This document shows, in pieces, positions 20,351 through 37,645 of a DNA stretch of 64,000 nt (position 1 is its first letter; every line of letters begins with the position of its first letter). Made by a program: the position numbers and the translations under genes. The notes below the pieces were generated by a model. It had not been told where the DNA came from. It was given only the letters and a program-made list of their open reading frames with translations, and did no database searches. Location of the stretch: the NCBI GenBank assembly GCA_000165345.1, contig CM000429.1, positions 96,001-160,000 on the forward strand, read 5' to 3'.

Positions 20351-20769
20351 CGTTACTGTAATTTAATTTTTTAATAATAAATTGTGTGGAATAAAGAAAA
20401 ATTCATTATTGGTTGATTAATATATGAAGAAAAGGATCCAAAAAGGATTCACCAATTATTAAAAAGTTGTGATTTATATCTATGCTTCTTTTATAAGAGT
20501 TTTATCAATTATTTAAACTTTTTAAGAACTGTTTTTATCATTTAATAAGTAATTTATTATAAAAAGAGTTTGCTGAAGAAATTATTTAAAGCTTCTTATA
20601 TTATAGAGTTGAAAGAAATACCAATAAATAATTATTAATTTGTGGCCTTTTATGATTCTGAAATGCAAGAATATCAATTATATTCAAGTAATTAAAGCAT
20701 TATTTAAAGTCAATGCACTTTTAGTGTAATTGGTTGAATGAATATATATTTGGAAAAGCAATCAGAAAA

Positions 20770-23700
20770 ATGAGTGTTTTACAAATCATTCTTTCAATAA
20801 TATTAATAATATTCTCTCTATTATGTATATTTGTCCATATTTTAAAACAATTTCTTCAAAAAAAAGGCTTTGAAGTTTCTTTTTCTGGATTTTTTTCACT
20901 TGGAAATTTGAAAATAAAGATACTTGAAAAATATCTTAAAAAATATGATAATATTAGTGGATTCGAATTTTTTCTTTCAAAAATTTCAATCAGATTTCAA
21001 TCTTGGAAGCTTAAGTTTATTTTATATGAAAGTAAATGTATTTGTTTTATATTAAATGGAAATCATTTCAAAAACAAACAATTTGATCATCATCTTTCCC
21101 AATATTCTAGATTACAAAATCATTCATCTAGAAAAACTAATATTGGTACTGATGATAATAGTATTGGAATTATTCGTAATTTAATGTTAATTGTTACAGC
21201 ACAAATTATTTCCAGAATTATTTTATTTGAACTTGAAAATATTCAATTCCAATTTTATATGGTTGATTGTAAATGTATTGGTAATCATAGAAATCTTAAA
21301 ATTACTCAAGATGGTAGATGTGAAAAATGTGGTATTCAAATGAAGTATGGTATATATTCCAAACTTGATATTAATAGTTTAAGTATATTTCCAAAAGCTT
21401 ATTTTGGTGGAATCATGGTAAATTTTCTAATAAATAATCCAGTATTATACTTGAATCCTATTGAAAATACAATTTCTGAAAAAAGATGTCATACATTTTA
21501 TTTAAATTCCAATAATAAATATAATTCATCATCCAATCATAAAACAAGTATTTTGAATTATATTCTTAATCAGTTTTACATGAAAAATAATAAAACTATA
21601 TCAAAAAAATGCCATTCAAATCAAAATAATTATCCTCCTTTAATTTATATTGATAATAATTTAAATATTAAACTCAAATTAATGCATTCAATGTCTGGAT
21701 CTGATATTAGAGTTTGTATTCTTCGAAATGTGAATATTGAAATGAATCAACTTTGGATTACATTAATACCAGAAATTATTTGTGAACTGGTTTATATATT
21801 TCATACAATTAAATCCAATTTTAAGAATTTGAATAAAATTTCTTTTAATAAAAATAATCTTCAAGTATTAGATCCCAACATTATTAATCAATCTGATCCA
21901 ATTATTAAGTTATCCCCAAAATACCAATTATTAAGTAATAATGTACTTCCAATATCTCCTATTCCTTTAGCATCACCTTCTTCTCCAAGTATAATATCAT
22001 CATCAAACTCATACTCTCATTCTCCTCTTCCTCCTTCATTTGGTAACTTTGAAAATAAAGTCCCTAGAAATAAGAAAAAGCTTATAATGAATGAGAATTT
22101 AGATAGACAACTTCAAATTACCTTCAAAATTTCTCAACCATCTTTAATATTTTGTGATAATACTCAATCTAGCTCAGGTTTTGAGATATTATTTCATGAA
22201 TTTGAAGCACATCTTATAATTCAATATTTTATTGAATATCTTCAAAGTACACTTAAACTTTATAATCAAGATTATGATTTTGAATCTTCAAATTCAGAAA
22301 TATCTGACTTTAATATTATTGGTAATGAATCCAATCATTTTGATTTAGATACAACAGACTTGAAAAAAAAAACTAGAAGAAGCTTAAAACTTGTTTTTGG
22401 AAGTAAGCTTATCTTTGGGAATTCTATTTTATATTTAAACCCTAAAGAAAGCCATTATTTTTCAAAACAAATTATGCCAAATACCATAAAAGATGGAGAT
22501 TTTACCTTTGATCGAATGTTTGTGATTGAACATTATAAATCAATTGTTGAGATTTCTGACAACAATTTTGTTAAGCTTTATTTGAAGAGTTCCATTCAAA
22601 GAATGTTTGGAATATGGAGGGAAAATGGATTTTACCAGAACCTGACTCTATTTCTCCAATTAATTAAGTTTCAAAAGTACCTTTCCAAGATTAAAAACCA
22701 AGTTAATATTGATAATAGTGGTAATAGTAATAACAATAATAATAATAATAATAATAATAATATTGAAAAACCATTCATAGATCAAGCAACTGAAGAGATT
22801 CCAAAATTGCCTTCAAGAGTTGAATTGGAAGATGACGATATTCTTAAAAGTGATTTTCTTATTAAGAATAACAAATACTTAAAAGAGATTATGACAATTA
22901 AAGATTTTGCAGTTAATTTACTCTTTTACCTTGAAATCAAAGATATTACCATTCAAACCAATGATATTAATTGTTTTAACCATGAACTACACATTCTCAA
23001 AAAGAATGATTGCTCTAACAATCATTGTGAAAATTGTTTTATTGAATCCTTTGGTCCAAAAGAAAGGTATGAATGGAGAACTGATTTTGATTATGAATCA
23101 GATACCAAGTTCAATATGAAAATTAAAAAAGATGATAATGATACTGATCATGATAATCATAATGATGACAAGTTCTTCATTTTGAAAATTAATAATTTGA
23201 AGATCTGTAATACATCAATAAATAGAAGTTTCTCAATGCTCTTTTCTGATTTAGATCTTTACAGTATGAATGAATTTATTGATTTGGAAGATATATCTAC
23301 CAAGTATTTAAATTTACCATCATGCTTGAAACATAACCATGATATTTTAGATTTTCAAAAAACATGTATTTATCGTTATGGTTGTTTTGACCAAAGAATT
23401 CAAGTATTAAACTTTGAAATCTCACCAAAAATTAGAGATAAAAACCATTTAGTCAAATTATGTGAATCAATTATTATATCTCCTTGGGATTATAAAAGAA
23501 TTTCACTCAGATTTAAAGGTATTAATGGAAATCTCCATACTTGTTATATTCCAATATACCTTTATATTTTGGGTTGTTTTAGTATTGATTGTCTTGCTCT
23601 TAAAAAGAATAATTTAAACAAAGTTTATTATGGAATAAATAACCAATTTGAAGAAAATTTTGATTTTTATTGTAACCAAAGATTTAATTATTTTGAAAAA

Positions 23701-26700
23701 TTTAATGAAATAAAAAATGATATTTCCAATATTATCAGAGAATTTAATCCTCAAGAATTAAAAAATAGAAATATACAATTTTGGAATATTCCTGATTTAA
23801 TACAAAGTAAAGTTGGATCTTTAAAATATACTTGGTACTTTGACTTTGATGATATCACAGTAAACTTTTTGGATGGTTTTAAATTATTAGTTAATAAATT
23901 AAGCCTTTATAGATGTAATGAATATGGAAATTATGATATAAAAATGAATAATGTTAAGATATTTGATATTTTTGGTATTAATATTATTAATTCAAATTGT
24001 ATTAGATTAAGATCTGATATACCATATAAAAGTACCAAAATTAAATCACCAATTTGTCTTAAAAAACAACTGAGAAGAATTTTAGATTTGTCAGTGAATG
24101 GAGATTTACTTTTGCTTTCTATTCTTGGAAATACAGAAAAATCTGAGAATAACTTGAAAGATATTAATAATGGAATGATTTTCTTTGATTCAAAAAGGTT
24201 CATTCTTGAAATAGATAAGCTTGATATATTATTCTTTGTAAATTGTGAATATATGGAATCTTTTTTCAAATACTTTTATCAGTATATATATATAACTTAT
24301 TATCAGTTATTCCATCCTCCTTTAATAATAAGAACAGGAAAATTACTTTCATTTTCACGTAATCATCCAATAATCTTTTCTTGCAATAATATATTTGATT
24401 TTTCAATTACAAAAATGAATTTAAGCTTAATAAGTTTAGCTAATTTTATGCTTTCACAAAACTTTGAAAGATTTTCTCTTGGTTCTTCAGTATATAGAAA
24501 CAAAATTTACTCCAAGGATGATTTATATATTCAAAATAATTTTAAATTTGATAATTCTTTAAATCATAAAATAAAATTTGGAATTAATAATATCTTTAAC
24601 TTACCAATTTTTGAATTAAAATTAGATAATTTAAGATTAATCATCCGAACAAAGCATACATCCAATTCAAAATCTGTTTGTAATGATAGGGAATGTTACA
24701 ACATTCCAAACTATCTTACTAATAGTATGATTTCGGAAGAAGGATTTCTTATTAATTCAAGTTATAATCCAATCAATATTTTTGTATCTTTATTTGGAAT
24801 TTCTTTCAATTTATATAACCAATTGAATCTGTATAAAAGCAGAACCACAATTCAATCAAGGAAAGAAATTACTTTTTTTAGCGAGAATATTGTTATTGAC
24901 TTTAGAAGGAATTATTCTCATGTGGATTCCAATATTAATGGTGATTTTCCTGAGTTAAGTTCTGATGTGACAATTTCAATTTACTCAAAGTCTAAGACTT
25001 CAGTTAATTTGAGTAATGCAAGCTCATTTAAAGCCATAAAATTTATAAATCCAATCTTTGAAATGATTAAAAATTGTCCAAATTTCAAATCCAAGTTTCA
25101 AAAAAGTAACTGTGAGGTCTTCTCAAAAGAATTCAAGAATATAATCATCTCAAGAAATACCCTGATAATTTCTATCATCACTTCGGATTTGACAAGCTTG
25201 TATTTGGTTCCTTATATTAATCTTCAAAGCGAAAGAGAAATGAGTGAAAATTCTTCAGTATGTATTCAATTACCAAAAATTGAATTTTATTTGAAAAAGT
25301 ATAATAATTCTCATGTTGAAAATCAAGAAATAAATAACTTTTTAAGTCAGATAGAATCATCTTCTTTATTTCTTAAGGAAGGAATCTTAATTTGGATACT
25401 TTCCAAAGAAATCTTTGCTCCTGTATCAAATAAAAAACTTCAATGTCGTCTTTCTTCAATTTTGAATTCAAAAAATCAAAAATACTCTTTAAAAAGTACC
25501 TTGGTTTCTATTTCAAAGTTCAATATAAATACTCAAAGGAATACATATAATAATTTCAATATAAAATTGGACTTGGATGGTTTGGATAAGAAGTCAATAA
25601 TAGAAAGATGTTTTGGAAATGACTTTAATAATGGTGATAATACTCAAAATATGGTTATACCTTTGACTTTAAATTTGGATTCAGAGAAATTGATCCAACT
25701 TTCCACAATATTAGAATCTTTTCTTGATGAAAGTAATTTTGATAGTATTTCCATATATTATTGTGAAGATTGCAATAAATTTAAACCAACAAAATCAGAG
25801 TCTTTATTGAGATCACAAAAAGTTTTGAATTTGGATCAAAAAAGCTTATCCCATGAAAAGAATAATAATCAACCAGAATTGAACTTTAAATTAAAAATTT
25901 CTTTGAATTATATTAATTTGAGATATGAAATCTTTAGCCTGATAATTAATCATGTATTACTTGACTTGAGATATTGTAATTCAAAGATTGGAAATCTGAA
26001 ATTAGGAATAAAAGAAACTCAGCTGATTGCTGAATATTTTCCATATAAACTCAGTCAATTTTCTAAGTCATCCCAGTCTTTCAAAATTTTACGTGAATCT
26101 AGTATTCAGATATCTTCAAACTTTAGTGCGAAAACAAAAATGTTGGAAATAGCTAGAATTGGAAGTATTTTTTTTGATAATAATAATGACTCAATTTTGC
26201 TTGTTTTAAGAGCTCCTCAATTTAGTTTAAGTACTTTAACAATTATTTACTTGGAAGTTTTAATTAAAATCATTAATATGTTAAAGTTAAAATCAAAAAG
26301 AGTTCCATTCAAAAACGAGAAATCTTCATTAAGTCCAATAAATAATACATCATCTATTCCTTTAATTTCAGGAAGGAAGCTGAATATCCAGATTAATGAA
26401 ATTATGTTTAATATGCATAATCTTGGAACTTTTAGAGATTATACAATTCAAAGAGATGATCGAAAGTTTCGTCTTGGATCTAGCTATTCAGGATTCAAAA
26501 AGATAAATATAGTACCTGATTTAGATACTCAAAGTGAATTTCTTTTTCAAGTTATAGAAAGGAATCCAATAAATAGTACTTTTACTTTAGTTGATGATTT
26601 GGAAGAATCAAATACAAATCTTGATATTTTTAAAGGTAACAATGGCCAATCTTGTCTTGAATGTAGGTATCATTTAAACAAAGCACTAATATATACTTCA

Positions 26701-29700
26701 AGAATTTCCACAGATTTGAAAGATAATAACCATTTTCGAGGAAATACTAATATTAATATTAGTAATTGCAATAATAATAGCAGTAGTAGTAACAGTCAAT
26801 TCGATGAAATCTTTAGGAATTATTGCAATGACTACTTCTCCTTGCTTGATGAGCATGTGATTTCAGACAAATATCAAAAATCCAGCTTTGAGATGATCCA
26901 AGAATATAAGAGGATTTGTTTATATACTGAAAGTAATATAAGCATCCCTTTAGAATATGGCCAAATAACAGATTACATGATTCTTGGAGAATTTGGATAT
27001 GGAATAAAATCTGATCATATTTCATTATCAAGAAGCTTTAAGCAAATAATAACTAGGATTCCTAGAGTTGATTGCTCAATTGGTATTCATGATAGAAACA
27101 AGAATTTCGAGTTTGTATTAAAGATATTTCCTGTTTCAATTGATGTTTTTCTCTCAAACAGATTGATTTGGGATTTGTTTGGAGAATGTACACTTGAGGA
27201 TTTATTTGATATAAATAAGGAAGATCATCCCAGAATTTTTCCAGAAATCTCCAATTATTATTGCTGTAGATCAGAAGAGTCATTTCAATGGGATGATCAT
27301 AATTGCCAGGCTCACCCTCATTCTCAAAATGACTGTAGTAGGATCATTTCCGATATTCCACATGTAATAAAAAGTAATGAGAATTTTGAGGTGGTGACGG
27401 AAAATTTCTTATCATCTTCATCATCATCCTCTCCGCCTTTAGCCCTCATAGAGGAATTCCAATCGGATAGAAAAAGAAGTTTATATGATTCCACTCAAGA
27501 GATTCTGAAGACAACTCCCATTTTTGTTAGTATTCGAATTCATACAGAAAAACCAAGTACTCAACTAAAGATGTATTCAAAACTGCTTTCAGTTTCAATT
27601 GATTCAAGTAGAGTCCAATCAATTAATGAGATCTTGAATTCATTTGAGCTCAGGAATATAAACACAAACAAGAATAATCCGTCGTACCAAGTATCCAATA
27701 ATATCTCAAATCACCCTTCAACTTTGACCAGTTCGAACAATACAACTATAAATAATCATCCAATGAGCGTTTTGTCAAACACAATGAATAGTGTTGCAGG
27801 TGGAAATCTTCCACCTCCAATTTACTATTCACATAACTTGAACCCAACAAACAGTATAGTAAGTTCTGGAGATCAGGCCCAAAATCTAAGTTCCCATATT
27901 TCACAACAAGGATACAACTTTAATGCATATCCCACAGCAAAGACTCCTTCAGTATTATCTTTCTCGAACTATTTTTACGACCAAAAACAAGAACAGGGTC
28001 AAAGAATAAACGCAATGAACCTATTGAACTTGAATAATAAAACCAAGAATGCAAATCCCAAATCTAATTCTTTGGACTTTAATGCCAATCGACTTCTTTT
28101 AAATTGTGATTTGAATGATAAGAATGTAATGAATATGCTTAAGTTTGAAATTGATAAATTTTTAGCAGATAATCCGCTTTTTTATACAGTTGTTGATAAT
28201 ATCCAATGTCAGGCTGGAGGAGACAATAACCATCTTAACCAATATAGGCTTCAGATAGAATGTATTGTAGATCAGCTGAATGTTGATATGTTCATTAATA
28301 ACAAAAGATTCTCAAATTTCCAATCAAAAGATATTAACTTTGTTATGTTCTCAAATAATAATCCTTCAAACTCAACAATAATAGAGTTTGATACATCATT
28401 TATCCATTTATCGGCCAATAAAGACTTTGTACAGTCGAATGGCAACTCAAATGTTATTCCAGGTACAAACGGCGTTGGTAGTGGCGTTGTTTCTGGTAAC
28501 AATAATAGCAATTACAATAATCAAATTAACTTTAATATCTCGAATTCCAATTTAAATCCAAATTCAAACAATATCTTCAATGCAAATGGTAATGGTATTG
28601 GTAATGGAAATGTAAATTCCAATATCATTGGAGAAGGTGGAACGGGTCTTAATCATAATAACTCAGGCTTGAATGTTAGTTCGGTATCTACGATTGAAAA
28701 TAGCATTAATGCAACTTCTCAGGAAGAAATTTCCATAATTCATCCCATGTACATTGATGGACATACTAGTCAGGGGCATGGACATGTTTTATCAATTCGT
28801 ATAAATATGAGGCAGGTTAGATTACTAGAAGTATATAACATACGAATCTTAGAGAGCGTTGTAATCAGAGTCCATCCAATTCGGGTAAACATTACTCAAT
28901 ATTTAACTTCTTGTTACTATGATATATTCTTCCCACCACCAATAACAAACCAGCCAAGCATGACTTCAATCCAAATTGGAAGTAATACCCAGAACTTTTT
29001 ACAAATGTCAAATGTTGCTTCTGAAGCTGCTTCATCCAAGATAAAAGAAGATAATGCTATTTATGCCGAAAACTCTTACATTATCAATAGTAATACCAAT
29101 AGTGATATAACAATACCAACAATTGAACAAGAAAATTCTTCTTTAACATTTAATAACCAACAACCACAAAATAATAACACATCAGTAGACACGCAAAACT
29201 GCTCAAAAAATATACTATACTTTAATTACCTTCGAATATCATCAATTCTTGTGGAAGTCACTTATCGTGGATCTGTATCGTTAAATAACGTACTTTTGGA
29301 ACTTAGCTCTTTCACTCAAAGAAGAAAGCATAGAACTGTAAAGGAAATGGTTGACAAATATATCTCTTTCCTTAGACGTCAAGCTGCTAGACCTGTTATT
29401 TCATATACTTTCAAACAACTCAGACACTCTTTACTTCCTAAACACTTCAAATCCCATAAACGTAATAGCAACTATAATTCTCATTATGATATTATCCAAG
29501 CAAATATTCAAAATAACCACCTTAATAATGGAAATGAACGTTCCTTGAAAATTGATTCTTCTTATCAAGACCTTCTTTCTGAAACTACAAACAATGGAAA
29601 TCATTCCAATTACAACAATAATATTAACTCCATTCTTTCTAAAAACGACGATGACCTTCCTAACACTTATCGCAAGATTCAAAATACCAACTGCTCAAAA

Positions 29701-29757
29701 AATGACTCAGAATACAATAAATTTAGACTCATCTTTGGTAATCAACTTTTGATTTAA
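20770..29757 (+). CDS. giant (~2995 aa) Asn/Ile/Ser-rich protein with an N-terminal transmembrane anchor; function unknown
   Basis: The first codon of track ORF 20734 is TTG. The first ATG in frame is at 20770 (MSVLQIILSIILIIFSLLCIFVHIL, a transmembrane helix). The frame stays open to 29757. Poly-Asn encoded by (AAT)n at about 22735-22775. Confidence 0.6.
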   Translation: MSVLQIILSIILIIFSLLCIFVHILKQFLQKKGFEVSFSGFFSLGNLKIKILEKYLKKYDNISGFEFFLSKISIRFQSWKLKFILYESKCICFILNGNHFKNKQFDHHLSQYSRLQNHSSRKTNIGTDDNSIGIIRNLMLIVTAQIISRIILFELENIQFQFYMVDCKCIGNHRNLKITQDGRCEKCGIQMKYGIYSKLDINSLSIFPKAYFGGIMVNFLINNPVLYLNPIENTISEKRCHTFYLNSNNKYNSSSNHKTSILNYILNQFYMKNNKTISKKCHSNQNNYPPLIYIDNNLNIKLKLMHSMSGSDIRVCILRNVNIEMNQLWITLIPEIICELVYIFHTIKSNFKNLNKISFNKNNLQVLDPNIINQSDPIIKLSPKYQLLSNNVLPISPIPLASPSSPSIISSSNSYSHSPLPPSFGNFENKVPRNKKKLIMNENLDRQLQITFKISQPSLIFCDNTQSSSGFEILFHEFEAHLIIQYFIEYLQSTLKLYNQDYDFESSNSEISDFNIIGNESNHFDLDTTDLKKKTRRSLKLVFGSKLIFGNSILYLNPKESHYFSKQIMPNTIKDGDFTFDRMFVIEHYKSIVEISDNNFVKLYLKSSIQRMFGIWRENGFYQNLTLFLQLIKFQKYLSKIKNQVNIDNSGNSNNNNNNNNNNNIEKPFIDQATEEIPKLPSRVELEDDDILKSDFLIKNNKYLKEIMTIKDFAVNLLFYLEIKDITIQTNDINCFNHELHILKKNDCSNNHCENCFIESFGPKERYEWRTDFDYESDTKFNMKIKKDDNDTDHDNHNDDKFFILKINNLKICNTSINRSFSMLFSDLDLYSMNEFIDLEDISTKYLNLPSCLKHNHDILDFQKTCIYRYGCFDQRIQVLNFEISPKIRDKNHLVKLCESIIISPWDYKRISLRFKGINGNLHTCYIPIYLYILGCFSIDCLALKKNNLNKVYYGINNQFEENFDFYCNQRFNYFEKFNEIKNDISNIIREFNPQELKNRNIQFWNIPDLIQSKVGSLKYTWYFDFDDITVNFLDGFKLLVNKLSLYRCNEYGNYDIKMNNVKIFDIFGINIINSNCIRLRSDIPYKSTKIKSPICLKKQLRRILDLSVNGDLLLLSILGNTEKSENNLKDINNGMIFFDSKRFILEIDKLDILFFVNCEYMESFFKYFYQYIYITYYQLFHPPLIIRTGKLLSFSRNHPIIFSCNNIFDFSITKMNLSLISLANFMLSQNFERFSLGSSVYRNKIYSKDDLYIQNNFKFDNSLNHKIKFGINNIFNLPIFELKLDNLRLIIRTKHTSNSKSVCNDRECYNIPNYLTNSMISEEGFLINSSYNPINIFVSLFGISFNLYNQLNLYKSRTTIQSRKEITFFSENIVIDFRRNYSHVDSNINGDFPELSSDVTISIYSKSKTSVNLSNASSFKAIKFINPIFEMIKNCPNFKSKFQKSNCEVFSKEFKNIIISRNTLIISIITSDLTSLYLVPYINLQSEREMSENSSVCIQLPKIEFYLKKYNNSHVENQEINNFLSQIESSSLFLKEGILIWILSKEIFAPVSNKKLQCRLSSILNSKNQKYSLKSTLVSISKFNINTQRNTYNNFNIKLDLDGLDKKSIIERCFGNDFNNGDNTQNMVIPLTLNLDSEKLIQLSTILESFLDESNFDSISIYYCEDCNKFKPTKSESLLRSQKVLNLDQKSLSHEKNNNQPELNFKLKISLNYINLRYEIFSLIINHVLLDLRYCNSKIGNLKLGIKETQLIAEYFPYKLSQFSKSSQSFKILRESSIQISSNFSAKTKMLEIARIGSIFFDNNNDSILLVLRAPQFSLSTLTIIYLEVLIKIINMLKLKSKRVPFKNEKSSLSPINNTSSIPLISGRKLNIQINEIMFNMHNLGTFRDYTIQRDDRKFRLGSSYSGFKKINIVPDLDTQSEFLFQVIERNPINSTFTLVDDLEESNTNLDIFKGNNGQSCLECRYHLNKALIYTSRISTDLKDNNHFRGNTNINISNCNNNSSSSNSQFDEIFRNYCNDYFSLLDEHVISDKYQKSSFEMIQEYKRICLYTESNISIPLEYGQITDYMILGEFGYGIKSDHISLSRSFKQIITRIPRVDCSIGIHDRNKNFEFVLKIFPVSIDVFLSNRLIWDLFGECTLEDLFDINKEDHPRIFPEISNYYCCRSEESFQWDDHNCQAHPHSQNDCSRIISDIPHVIKSNENFEVVTENFLSSSSSSSPPLALIEEFQSDRKRSLYDSTQEILKTTPIFVSIRIHTEKPSTQLKMYSKLLSVSIDSSRVQSINEILNSFELRNINTNKNNPSYQVSNNISNHPSTLTSSNNTTINNHPMSVLSNTMNSVAGGNLPPPIYYSHNLNPTNSIVSSGDQAQNLSSHISQQGYNFNAYPTAKTPSVLSFSNYFYDQKQEQGQRINAMNLLNLNNKTKNANPKSNSLDFNANRLLLNCDLNDKNVMNMLKFEIDKFLADNPLFYTVVDNIQCQAGGDNNHLNQYRLQIECIVDQLNVDMFINNKRFSNFQSKDINFVMFSNNNPSNSTIIEFDTSFIHLSANKDFVQSNGNSNVIPGTNGVGSGVVSGNNNSNYNNQINFNISNSNLNPNSNNIFNANGNGIGNGNVNSNIIGEGGTGLNHNNSGLNVSSVSTIENSINATSQEEISIIHPMYIDGHTSQGHGHVLSIRINMRQVRLLEVYNIRILESVVIRVHPIRVNITQYLTSCYYDIFFPPPITNQPSMTSIQIGSNTQNFLQMSNVASEAASSKIKEDNAIYAENSYIINSNTNSDITIPTIEQENSSLTFNNQQPQNNNTSVDTQNCSKNILYFNYLRISSILVEVTYRGSVSLNNVLLELSSFTQRRKHRTVKEMVDKYISFLRRQAARPVISYTFKQLRHSLLPKHFKSHKRNSNYNSHYDIIQANIQNNHLNNGNERSLKIDSSYQDLLSETTNNGNHSNYNNNINSILSKNDDDLPNTYRKIQNTNCSKNDSEYNKFRLIFGNQLLI

Positions 29758-30129: not shown

Positions 30130-31567
30130 ATGGAAGAACCTAATTACCAGGAGGAATCAATAGAATGTATTGCATCTTGTAATCTTTCTGTAAGTTCAAA
30201 TGATTAGAATAAGTGAAATGCGGATTTTTTTTTTGTTACTAAATGAAAAAATAAAGAAATTTTCGTTATCAAGTAATTAAATAAACTAAATAACTTTGAT
30301 TTTTATAATTTTCACTAATAATCATAATTTCAGAATGAAAACACTCCTGTTGGAATAATTCTAAATGATACAGAAAAGAAAGTCTTAACAGCATGTAATG
30401 ACAAGCTTTACTACTTTAATTTGAGTGAGATTATTGATTCATATACTTCATTTCTTGAAAAAGAAGATGGAAGAATTTCCTATTACAAATCTATTCATCT
30501 AGGGTAAGATTTCACGAATTTAATCATGAGAAATTATTTTTCAAATTTATCAAAAATCTAATGATTTTTAGAGGAAATATAAGAAGTATTTCTAGAAATA
30601 AACAAATAAGAGACCATTTAAGAACCAATAATATGGCCTTATTTGCCTTGAATTGTAGAAATTATCCAGTAAAAGTATATAATTTTGATGGTGAACTAAT
30701 AACTAGCGTATATATGAGAAACCAATTTGAAGAAATTGATGAAATTTATTCACTGGAATTTATATATTCAGAAGAATCATCTATTATTTTAGGAGGAGGA
30801 AAGAATTGTATCCATGTATATGATTATAATTCCGGTAAAACACTTGAATATATCGTAAGTTTAATCCCAATATTAATATTCTTAATTAAAATTAAACTAA
30901 ATATTCGTAGAATTTCAATTCCAAAGAATGTAAAATAGAAAATTCAAAATGCCAGAAAGGTATTATATCATGTCTATCACTCAAAACAAGTGGTATAGGA
31001 TCTTTCTCTGTATTTGCATCAGGATCTTTCTCAAAAACAATCTTTTTACATGATTTAAGTGACCTTCATAGCCAAATTCAACTCAGTGATAACAATTTAA
31101 ATCTTAATTCTGTAACTGAACTTTATTGGTTAGATGGTTCCTATGATTCTAAGTTTATGGATTACCACTTAATTTCTGGTCATAGAAATAGTGACTACTT
31201 ATATATTTGGGATGTAAGGAAGCCTAATAATATACTTTTTAAATTAGATAGAGAAAATTTTGGTTCAAATCAAAGATATAATATTAACCTTAAATATTTT
31301 GAAGATGAGTTAATATTAACTTATGGAGATTCCAGAGGAAACCTTAATATACAAAAACTAAAATTTAATTATGATTACAATAAATTCCTTCAAAATGTAA
31401 AGCAAAGACAAAAAATCAAATTAAAAAGTCAATCCATTCCTTGCGTTGAGAGGTTTTTTGATCAAAAGTTATTAGTTACGTTATCTGGTGAAAGATTCAC
31501 GAGTTGCGAAAAAGATCAAGGATGCACTTTCAATGTTTGGAAGATTAACACGAATACCCCCAGTTAA
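30130..31567 (+). CDS. WD40-repeat protein (374 aa), four exons: join(30130..30189, 30334..30503, 30572..30854, 30956..31567)
   Basis: Introns: GTAAGT...aatttcAG (30190-30333), GTAAGA...gatttttAG (30504-30571), GTAAGT...aaaatgccAG (30855-30955). Track ORFs 30561..30938 and 31157..31567 are its exon 3 and exon 4 fragments. WD-like motifs GSFSKTIFLHD and GHRNSDYLYIWDVR. 1125 nt = 375 codons. Confidence 0.55.
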
Positions 31568-34003: not shown

Positions 34004-36611
34004 TTAGAAATTAGCAAAAAGAGGGTCTCTTTGAGCTTGCTTTTGTCCAGGAACTGAGGAGAATAAAGCAGCCTTTGCTGAACTGGGATTATTCATATTT
34101 GGATTCTGCATTTGAGAAGATCCTCCTCCAATATTCCCACCAGCTCCACCATTACCACTGCCAGAAGATAATAATTGTTGGTTAGGCATAGATTGTTGAT
34201 TATTTCTAAAATTGTTCTGAGATTGGGAATGCTGCATTTGCTGCTGTCTCATATTTCCTGCTCCAGGTTGACCTCCTCCAGAGAGTTGCATCTTTTGATT
34301 GAAGTTATTCTGCATTTGCTGCAAATCATTATCATATTGCTCATCAAAGTCATTGTTAGTTAAAGCCGCAATATTAGGATCTCTTTGGAGTATTGTTGAA
34401 GCCTTTTTCAAAGTATTCAACTGATTCACCAAAGCCTTACGTTCTTCAACAATATGATTTGGTTCATTTAACAAATCAGAAAGTCTTTCAGCTTTATTAA
34501 ATTCATTATACAATTGAAATTGTAACTTATCCATAATTTGTCTAACTAAAAAGTGACCAATGATCTTTGGAACAGAATCACGAATATTTCTCACAACTAT
34601 TGAAAAGTAAGAATCAAGTCTTTTTCTTATTTCCTTCAAGAATACTTGAGAATATCTAGTTTTCCTCTTATTATTATCTTTATTTTGAGAAAAAGGATCT
34701 TGTGACCACAAATTGGCAGACAAAGAGTTAGTCATACTCCCCACTGTCTGTTGAACCTGACTAAATATTTGTGAAGTCTTTGTTTGCTCTTTTTGTATTG
34801 GTTGTCCATCTGACCCCACTTGCATCATATTCGGGTCTTGCATGCCATTGGCGCCCATCTGACCAGCTCTGGCGCCGGCGGCATTTGGATCGTTTGGATT
34901 ACCTTGTGAGTTATTGTTAATTACACTTCCATGTTCAGTTAAATATTTTGAATCATTTGTGAAAAGATAGCCAGTCTCAGCTTCAACCAATTGTTCAAGA
35001 ATTGTCTTTGTATTTTCTTTCTCTTGTAGTAGAATCTCTTGGCTTCTATCTAGTATTTGATCTGAAAGTTTTGGAAATCTACTAAAGACCTTATGTGCAA
35101 CCTTTTGACTAACATTCTCCAAAGCTGAAGTAACCTTGTCCAAACATTCCATAACAGGAGCTTGAATTTTTCTTAAATGAGGTAAAATTAAGTATTCAAA
35201 CATATCAGGAGAAGGAAAACCAGGCATTGAATCTCCTTCATGCATTCTTATTGCAGCATCAATGTCATAATCTGTGAGTTCTGAAGTTACATCATTTTCA
35301 GTATACTCATCTAAAAGTTCATTAAAAATTACTCTTATTTGAGCCCCACTTGACATTCCACCATCACTTCCATGGTCAAAATAAGTTTGAAGTCTCTTAT
35401 CATATTTTCCACGGATTGTATTCTTAATCATCTCACAATAATCTGTTATCATTGCCCACATTAATTGAGTCCTATCGCTGCTTTCTAAAGGTACTGACTG
35501 TCCAAACTCATCTAATCTTGATGATAAAGTTCTAATTCTTGCATTGATTTCTCTTCTAATATCTGGTAAGAAAGTTCTAATATGTTTGAATAAAACTTTT
35601 GTCAACTTTGAAACTAGATTCTTTGTACCAACTAATTCTGGTGAAAGATTTCTATAAACTGGATGTGTTGAAAAGAATGTTGCTTCATCCTCTAAAGCAT
35701 CTTTTATCGATTTCCCCGCCTTTAAATCTGCTGAACTTCTATTCTTCACACCTGTATACCCTAATCTCAACGGAACTTCATCTCCATGAAGCATTTTTGA
35801 AGCGTCTGTACCTCTATCCATTAAGTCTATCTTAGTTACAACACCAATAGTTCTCAAACCTTTAGGATCCACTCTTCTAGAAAGTTGAAGAGCATCAGAA
35901 GTTGACATATCAGCATTAGCTGGAATTACCGCTAGAATGATTGTCCTTGGATCTCTTGCATATCTTATTGCCATATCTCTAGTCAATTGTTCAATATTAT
36001 CACATTGATCACTACCTTTTAATGGTACCCTTGTAATACCTGGTAAATCTATTAAAGTTAAATCAGGGCATTGGGTACCATAAATTGTTAATATTATTGG
36101 ATCATCTACAATACCTTTATTTTTCCCTGCTACTTCATCAGTAAGACGGTCAATTTCTTCTCTAACTTTCTCAAAGTCTGTGAATTTCTTATTCTTATCT
36201 TTTTCAAATACTACATAAGCTTCATCAATTCCATTTTTACTTGGAATATGTACTAGACGCATTTCAACAGGACGTCTGGTTACTATTCCTTCTCCTCTAG
36301 GTAGAAAATCGAATCCAACTACAGATTCTAATACACTTGATTTTCCTGAACTTTGTGTACCAACAACACAAATCCTAGGGAGATTAATGTACTGTTGTAG
36401 TCCCACATCTCTGAGTTCATCCTAGAATTTTAATTAATTAATTAATAATAGTTATTATTGTTAAATATTTGCACGCATGCATGCAATTTTAAATGTGGGG
36501 TTTAGAATTCAGTTTAAATTCATCCACATTTCATCTTCTTTTTTTTTTAGAAGAAAATTATTAATACAAACTTACCACCAGGCTAATTAGTTTTCTCAAG
36601 TTTTGGTACAT
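34004..36611 (-). CDS. dynamin-related GTPase (817 aa), two exons: join(36611..36576, 36421..34004)
   Basis: G1 to G4 motifs GTQSSGKSSVLE, DLPGITRVP, TKID. The first codon of the track ORF is GTG at 36406. A 12-codon upstream exon MYQNLRKLISLV | GTAAGT (donor 36575) joins at acceptor ttctAG (36422), giving MYQNLRKLISLVDELRDVGLQQYINLPRICVVGTQSSGKSSVLE. This matches the dynamin/Drp1 N-terminus (LIPVINKLQDVFNTVG...LPQIVVVGTQSSGKSSVLE). Q/N/G-rich C-terminal region. Confidence 0.85.
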
Positions 36612-37645
36612 TTCCAAATTAATTTAACATCAATTTGCTTAATTTCTTGATTTATTAACTTTTAGAATTTATTATTATATATATCTTATGCTAACTTAAA
36701 TCCTATTTCTACTAATATCTCATTAATTGTCAAAAAATGCTTTTTTTTTTTAAGCTTAATTATTTTCACAGATTCTTCGAATTATTATTTATTTGTTTGC
36801 CAATATATTTATATTTTAATTTAAATATATATCTATCTATATTTATTATTGTTAATTGAATTTATTATTAAAGACAAATACTTGGGCATAGTATACGTAT
36901 TCTCCCTCATATGTTTATCAGTATAATGCAATAAAATAACATTTTACAAAAAAAAAATTCTCAAACTTGCAAGAATTTGACATATAATTTTTTTTCTTCA
37001 CCTTCATAATTTCAAACATTAAAACCTTAATTAAATTATCCTTTTTTTTATAAATGAAATATCAATTCTAACTATTTTCTGTCTCCCCCCCTCTTCCTCT
37101 TTTTTGATATATTAATATTTTTTTGACTATTCACCCCCATCTCCCTCTAACTCATTTTTTTAGGCTTTAATGATAATTAAAGAAACCATTGAAGGAAAAA
37201 AACCAAGTTAAAATGTTCAAAATATATATGTAAATAAATATATTTTAATTATCTTTTCTTTTTCATGATATCTTATTGTCATTTCTCTTTTTAGAAACAT
37301 TAAAAAACATTTCCACATAATTATTGCATGCAATGGCGGGAACTTGAATAATAGGTATTGCCTTTAAGCGGGAACTTTTCTGAATAATTAAAGGAAATAC
37401 ATGCATTTAAAATAGATGAAAGAAAGAAATTATGATAGGGAAGTAAGAAACATGTATAAAAGATAATAGAAAATTAGTTAAAAATTTAAAGTAGCTATTT
37501 TATGATTAAACTTTAAGATATATTTAATTCTTATATTTAAAAAAAAATTCTTGGAATAAGAATTAATAATTTATATTAAAAATGAATAATATACTCTGTA
37601 TATATAATAAATAAATAATAAACAAATGAGATTTTAAGTTACTTA

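Follow-up and report, generated by a model that had tools for sequence, protein, structure and literature searches.

The question that this locus raises is where its dynamin gene starts. On the minus strand of the window (the whole 64,000-nucleotide stretch of Cryptosporidium parvum DNA that we analyzed, with a G+C content of 30.3%), the list of open reading frames includes a frame of 800 amino acids, 34004..36406, and that frame opens on GTG, just as the initial annotation had observed. The list is produced mechanically, using as a rule the first ATG, GTG, or TTG after a stop, and it does report non-ATG starts. The GTG at 36406 is one of them: it is chosen because it is the first such codon past an in-frame TAG, and that TAG belongs to a splice acceptor. 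We are highly confident that the gene in the window is the C. parvum gene for a DrpB-type dynamin-related protein of 817 amino acids, with two coding exons and one 154-nt intron in phase 0 (Table 1).

Table 1. Features of the dynamin gene, in window coordinates, under the two-exon model; the two other proposed start codons are included.
Feature	Position	Strand	Description
Exon 1 (micro-exon)	36576..36611	minus	ATG at 36611-36609 plus 11 codons, encoding MYQNLRKLISLV
Spliceosomal intron	36422..36575	minus	154 nt, phase 0, donor GTAAGT at 36575-36570
Exon 2	34004..36421	minus	codons 13-817 plus stop TAA at 34006-34004; opens GAT GAA CTC (DEL...)
GTG of the mechanical ORF	36404..36406	minus	codon 18 (Val) of the gene, internal rather than initiating
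ATG of Met66	36260..36262	minus	first codon of the older 752-aa Iowa II model
Dynamin_N GTPase domain (PF00350)	35828..36373	minus	residues 29-210, E = 2.7e-51
P-loop GTQSSGKS	36338..36361	minus	residues 33-40; upstream of the 752-aa model start
Dynamin middle region (PF01031)	34922..35806	minus	residues 218-512, E = 1.2e-80
GTPase effector domain (PF02212)	34385..34648	minus	residues 604-691, E = 4.2e-24

Translation upstream of the GTG reads DELRDV in frame, back to the TAG, and the intron ends in ...ttaaaattcTAG, with the AG at 36423-36422. A further 154 nt in the 5′ direction lies an exon with an ATG, ATGTACCAAAACTTGAGAAAACTAATTAGCCTGGTG on the minus strand, followed directly by GTAAGT. 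All of these elements had been pointed out in the initial annotation, and we find each of them in place. Removing the sequence from GTAAGT to TAG leaves one open frame: the spliced exons encode 817 amino acids with a single stop, at the terminus. The spliced N-terminus reads MYQNLRKLISLVDELRDVGLQQYINLPRICVVGTQSSGKSSVLE..., and the product of joining 36576 to 36421 is MYQNLRKLISLVDELRDVGLQQYINLPRICVVGTQSSGKS... The intron has 21% G+C, its length is not a multiple of 3, and retaining it would introduce stop codons in frame. In the proposed mechanism, translation would begin at the ATG at 36611, the intron from 36575 to 36422 would be spliced out after 12 codons, and the reading frame would resume at 36421 and continue through the 800-codon ORF to give the 817-aa protein.

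The 1.2-kb intergenic region upstream includes 14 candidates for a first exon, that is, an ATG followed by a GT in phase 0. The exon at 36611-36576 is the only one of the 14 that has a consensus GTAAGT donor, and also the only one with a dynamin-like peptide; the 13 other candidates have neither a good donor nor homology, and we rejected them. An in-frame TAA is located 5 codons 5′ of the dynamin ATG. The same region contains a small upstream ORF of 3 codons, ATG TTA AAT TAA, at 36619-36630 on the minus strand, 8 nt 5′ of the dynamin ATG. A scan of the upstream region for bacterial promoters and terminators reports 15 promoter-like sites versus 12.4 expected, a result that is irrelevant to a eukaryote.

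The bare ORF lacks residues that precede the P-loop in dynamins. As the initial annotation had noticed, the deficit is of that kind, and we count 17 residues: the first P-loop glycine is residue 16 of the ORF and residue 33 of the joined protein. The offset of the joined protein is like that of Drp1, in which the glycine is at position 32. The missing residues belong to a motif, Y-x-N-L-R-x-L-I-x-V-V-D-E-L-R-D-V-G-L-Q, that is found ahead of the P-loop in about 100 of the 120 best homologues. Among the carriers of the motif are entries from transcriptome assemblies (MMETSP and EukProt TSA), thus orthologues derived from mRNA read across the proposed junction. In an alignment of 32 diverse homologues, L5, R6, and I9 of exon 1 are invariant, and Y2 and L8 are nearly so; at the start of exon 2, D13, L15, R16, D17, and G19 are invariant, as are G33, T34, Q35, S36, G38, K39, and S40 of the P-loop. 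The claim that the joined N-terminus aligns with that of Drp1 holds up in a phmmer search against the sequences of the PDB, in which dynamin-3, dynamin-1, Drp1, Vps1, and Dictyostelium dynamin A align from query residues 2-8 onward.

This conservation leaves practically no room for a single-exon gene that initiates at the non-canonical GTG at 36406 and produces an 800-aa protein. The mechanical ORF call would agree with such a gene, and prokaryote-style callers applied to Logan contigs gave the same 800-aa products. On the other hand, the six in-frame codons that precede the GTG (DELRDV) are conserved, with the invariant residues D13, L15, R16, and D17 among them; conservation ends exactly at the AG acceptor; the upstream ATG exon is conserved in every species compared; and initiation at the GTG would lose most of an N-terminal helix that is present in all homologues and in solved dynamins. 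We reject GTG initiation as effectively refuted by the conserved DELRDV codons together with the conserved exon 1.

The helix itself depends on the two-exon model. An AlphaFold2 model, built from the 32-sequence alignment, predicts one helix for residues 2-17, running across the exon junction, with pLDDT of 77 for residues 1-10 and 90 for residues 11-20. The micro-exon supplies about two-thirds of this helix, and only with exon 1 in place does the protein have the N-terminal helix of dynamin-related proteins. The helix immediately ahead of the GTPase core in dynamins and Mx proteins counts as helix one of the bundle signalling element. In dynamins, this three-helix bundle is completed by the GED C-terminus and by the helix that ends the GTPase domain, and it couples GTP hydrolysis to the stalk. 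The GTPase-GED fusion structure of Chappie et al. 2010 (2X2E), reportedly the source for the bundle-signalling-element helix, is among the phmmer matches in the PDB sequences. By homology, we infer that helix 2-17 serves as the bundle's first helix and packs accordingly. For MX1, the helix before the GTPase domain has been described as part of the bundle signalling element (PMC9808005).

A different kind of evidence comes from the orthologous loci of other Cryptosporidium species. We compared C. parvum, as the reference, to C. meleagridis, C. ryanae, C. muris, and C. andersoni. All four have the 12-codon exon with the identical peptide, MYQNLRKLISLV, and yet the codons differ from those of C. 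parvum at 1 synonymous codon in C. meleagridis, 7 in C. ryanae, 8 in C. muris, and 8 in C. andersoni, with 0 non-synonymous differences. The intron, which has 154 nt in C. parvum, has 141, 90, 81, and 81 nt in those same species, and for the three distant ones (C. ryanae, C. muris, and C. andersoni) it is only about 42-47% alignable or identical. In the five Cryptosporidium species, the donors are GTAAGT or GTAAGC, the acceptors are TAG, AAG, or CAG, and each of the introns would bring in stops if retained. By this pattern, the codons of exon 1 are under purifying selection across the five species, and the intron is not.

The same comparison bears on the exact position of the donor. On the minus strand, 36570-36578 read GTGGTAAGT. 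An in-phase GT is present 3 nt upstream of the donor, at 36578-36577 (GTGGTA), and if it were used, either mainly or as a substantial alternative, exon 1 would end one codon earlier, MYQNLRKLISL would be followed by DELRDV, and the protein would have 816 amino acids. We consider this very unlikely. As a donor, GTGGTA is far inferior to GTAAGT; between the S/N/T position and DELRD, homologues have a pair of hydrophobic residues (LI-x-V-V/I-DELRD), which fits a 12-codon exon; and in C. ryanae the last codon of the exon is GTT, so that the GT context is different, while the annotated product is unchanged. Apart from the main product, the tandem donor could give rise to a minor 816-aa isoform without V12.

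Returning to the GTAAGT donor at 36575, we can ask how far the intron extends in evolution. Outside the genus, we mapped annotated proteins onto their own loci to obtain the positions of their introns. In the Besnoitia besnoiti DRPB gene, exon 1 ends with ...LRKLINVV and is followed by DELRDV, with the intron in phase 0. The Eimeria stiedai orthologue has the same phase-0 intron between VV and DELRD, with a GTAAGT donor. An intron at this position is absent in Plasmodium vivax (with a first exon of 2240 nt) and in Gregarina niphandrodes, and Perkinsus marinus has an intron 8 nt further on and in phase 2. From the five Cryptosporidium species to Besnoitia and Eimeria, position and phase are kept while the sequence of the intron drifts. 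The intron between VV and DELRD is probably old; the Cryptosporidium gene has kept no other, compared to 16 introns in the Besnoitia gene. One may go further, and propose that the intron between V12 and D13 was already present in the ancestor shared by Cryptosporidium and the coccidia, and that it has been kept amid genome-wide intron loss because it is functional; to this we assign only a slim chance. If it were true, the candidate roles would be expression that depends on a 5′-proximal intron, or a stage-regulated retention that switches DrpB off, and the survival of this intron as the only one of the gene would be no accident.

Is the two-exon model new? It is not. A search of protein collections finds the 817-aa joined protein, residue for residue, as QOY43571.1 / WRK30449.1, "Dynamin-like protein [Cryptosporidium parvum]", so that the start proposed in the initial annotation coincides with public annotation at 100% identity and coverage over the 817 amino acids. 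QOY43571.1 has the locus tag CPATCC_000372, in the chromosome-scale record CP044422.1 (about 0.9 Mb) of the IOWA-ATCC assembly GCA_015245375.1. We find coding loci for the protein in CP044422.1 (GCA_015245375.1) and in CP141118.1 (GCA_035232765.1); the gene spans 2608 nt in both, and in both assemblies this span is equal, base for base, to positions 36611..34004 of the window. Since 2608 - (817+1) x 3 = 154, the public model includes precisely the intron proposed. The QOY43571.1 and WRK30449.1 models have the same 36-nt exon 1 and the same 154-nt intron, without any difference, and the locus is the same.

The authors of the IOWA-ATCC assembly GCA_015245375.1 state that all introns are supported by RNA-seq (Baptista et al. 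2022; PMC8744675). From that statement and the comparative evidence, we infer that the 154-nt intron would in fact be spliced. C. parvum introns have been reported to have a mean length of 99 nt and 22% G+C, and to occur in about 11% of the genes (Isaza et al. 2015; PMC4637869). Relative to those values, the dynamin intron is typical in G+C (21%) and, at 154 nt, above the 99-nt mean in length. A search of JGI metagenome contigs for the exact spliced-junction string has no match, and C. parvum transcripts are unlikely in that collection. Among the homologue matches there is no spliced C. parvum transcript contig; the 800-aa entries found there are prokaryote-style calls on genomic contigs. In sum, the reconstruction is correct, but the two-exon model is already known and present in public annotation. 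GenBank has the correct two-exon model for C. parvum, C. hominis, C. tyzzeri, C. meleagridis, C. ryanae, C. muris, and C. andersoni. The result has little value for discovery, and its practical use is as a check on the method and on the data.

As for the data, not all database models of this gene are equal. An old Iowa II model of 752 amino acids (XP_001388141.1 / EAZ51318.1 / UniProt A3FQB9) persists in RefSeq and UniProt, and two C. hominis records copy its start. This model opens at Met66, the ATG at 36262, and as a result the P-loop is absent from it. The chances that Met66 is the correct start are negligible, despite the persistence of the model and its propagation to C. hominis. Such a start would delete the P-loop GTQSSGKS and the switch I region, two segments that lie in the same frame immediately 5′ of it and do not vary among homologues; the Pfam Dynamin_N domain already begins at residue 29; and later evidence-based reannotations have superseded the model with the one of 817 amino acids. 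We reject the Met66 start, as it would remove an invariant P-loop.

Records of two other species are labeled "partial" and open exactly at DELRDV, which means that exon 1 was missed there. Another C. hominis protein, OLQ15907.1 (815 aa), has an aberrant N-terminus, MYQNLRKLISLVRCSSDLQQ. In the C. hominis assembly GCA_001593465.1, record JIBM01000007.1 reads GATGAACTCAGAGATGCTCTTCCGATCTACAACAG where the window (at about 36406-36399) has GATGAACTCAGAGATGTGGGACTACAACAG. The segment GCTCTTCCGATCT, which differs from the window, sits just past the acceptor in that assembly. GCTCTTCCGATCT matches the Illumina TruSeq adapter at its 3′ tail, and the C. hominis string is probably an assembly artefact, a remnant of a sequencing adapter. 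The string shifts the frame, and this accounts for the MYQNLRKLISLVRCSSDLQQ N-terminus of OLQ15907.1. The models to avoid are then the 752-aa model of Iowa II and UniProt, which is without the P-loop, and the 815-aa model of C. hominis, distorted by a likely adapter remnant.

The rule of the ORF list affects another gene in the window. On the plus strand, an ORF of 3007 codons at 20734-29757 opens on TTG, as the initial annotation had reported; the first ATG comes 12 codons later, at 20770 (MSVLQIILSIILIIF...), and opens a hydrophobic N-terminus, MSVLQIIL... The 2995-aa product from the ATG at 20770 is exactly the annotated single-exon protein in three public C. parvum assemblies. This giant gene requires no exon further upstream, and its TTG start results from the ORF rule only. 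In this eukaryotic window, the GTG and TTG starts of the mechanical ORF track are artefacts, and the true start may be upstream in a micro-exon (as in the dynamin gene) or come a few codons later (as in the giant gene). In the region at about 30130-31567 on the plus strand, some 374 nt past the giant gene, there is no ORF longer than 136 amino acids, and yet a gene of 389 amino acids is annotated there, with a faint Pfam match to WD40/CDC20. Having no ORF longer than 136 amino acids under it, the 389-aa gene must be multi-intron, unusual in an intron-poor genome.

We return to the 817-aa protein, and to the kind of dynamin it is. A Pfam scan (E <= 0.001) reports Dynamin_N, Dynamin_M, and GED only, and neither a PH domain nor a proline-rich domain; without those two domains, the protein is a dynamin-related protein and not a classical dynamin. 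The AlphaFold2 model has a mean pLDDT of 71.6. Residues 512-597, between stalk and GED, and 726-811, in the tail, are low-confidence or disordered; the C-terminal tail is Q/N/G-rich, and pLDDT is below 50 for 726-811. The predicted fold matches the Drp1 structure 4bej (with a target-normalised TM of 0.84) as well as dynamin and Mx structures. Human Drp1 and yeast Dnm1 and Vps1, likewise dynamin-related proteins with neither a PH domain nor a PRD, have in common with the C. parvum protein the architecture of GTPase, middle region, and GED, and their N-terminal helix aligns; identity is about 45% over the GTPase-BSE portion and about 30% for the whole, and the tail is unrelated, as is the variable insert between stalk and GED.

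Outside the genus, the named proteins most closely related to it are DRPB of Besnoitia, Hammondia, and Toxoplasma (56-62% identity, E = 0), in line with the apicomplexan family to which the initial annotation pointed, and the Plasmodium dynamin-like protein; one Cryptosporidium sp. record already carries the name "dynamin-related DRPB". Across apicomplexan DrpB and the Plasmodium protein, identity ranges from 53 to 62%, and several local alignments span the full query. Apicomplexan DrpB and the C. parvum protein share the three Pfam domains and the N-terminal motif. In contrast, the C. parvum protein does not have an N-terminal extension before MYQ, and its Q/N/G-rich tail is lineage-specific. 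A second C. parvum dynamin, cgd8_1990, has also been mentioned (PMC7371110).

In Toxoplasma, DrpB is reported to be Vps1-like and to be required for the biogenesis of micronemes, rhoptries, and dense granules (PMC3812028). By analogy, the C. parvum protein may have a DrpB-like role in the biogenesis of post-Golgi vesicles and secretory organelles. For work on C. parvum DrpB, whether by tagging, knock-in, or expression, the 817-aa N-terminus is required.
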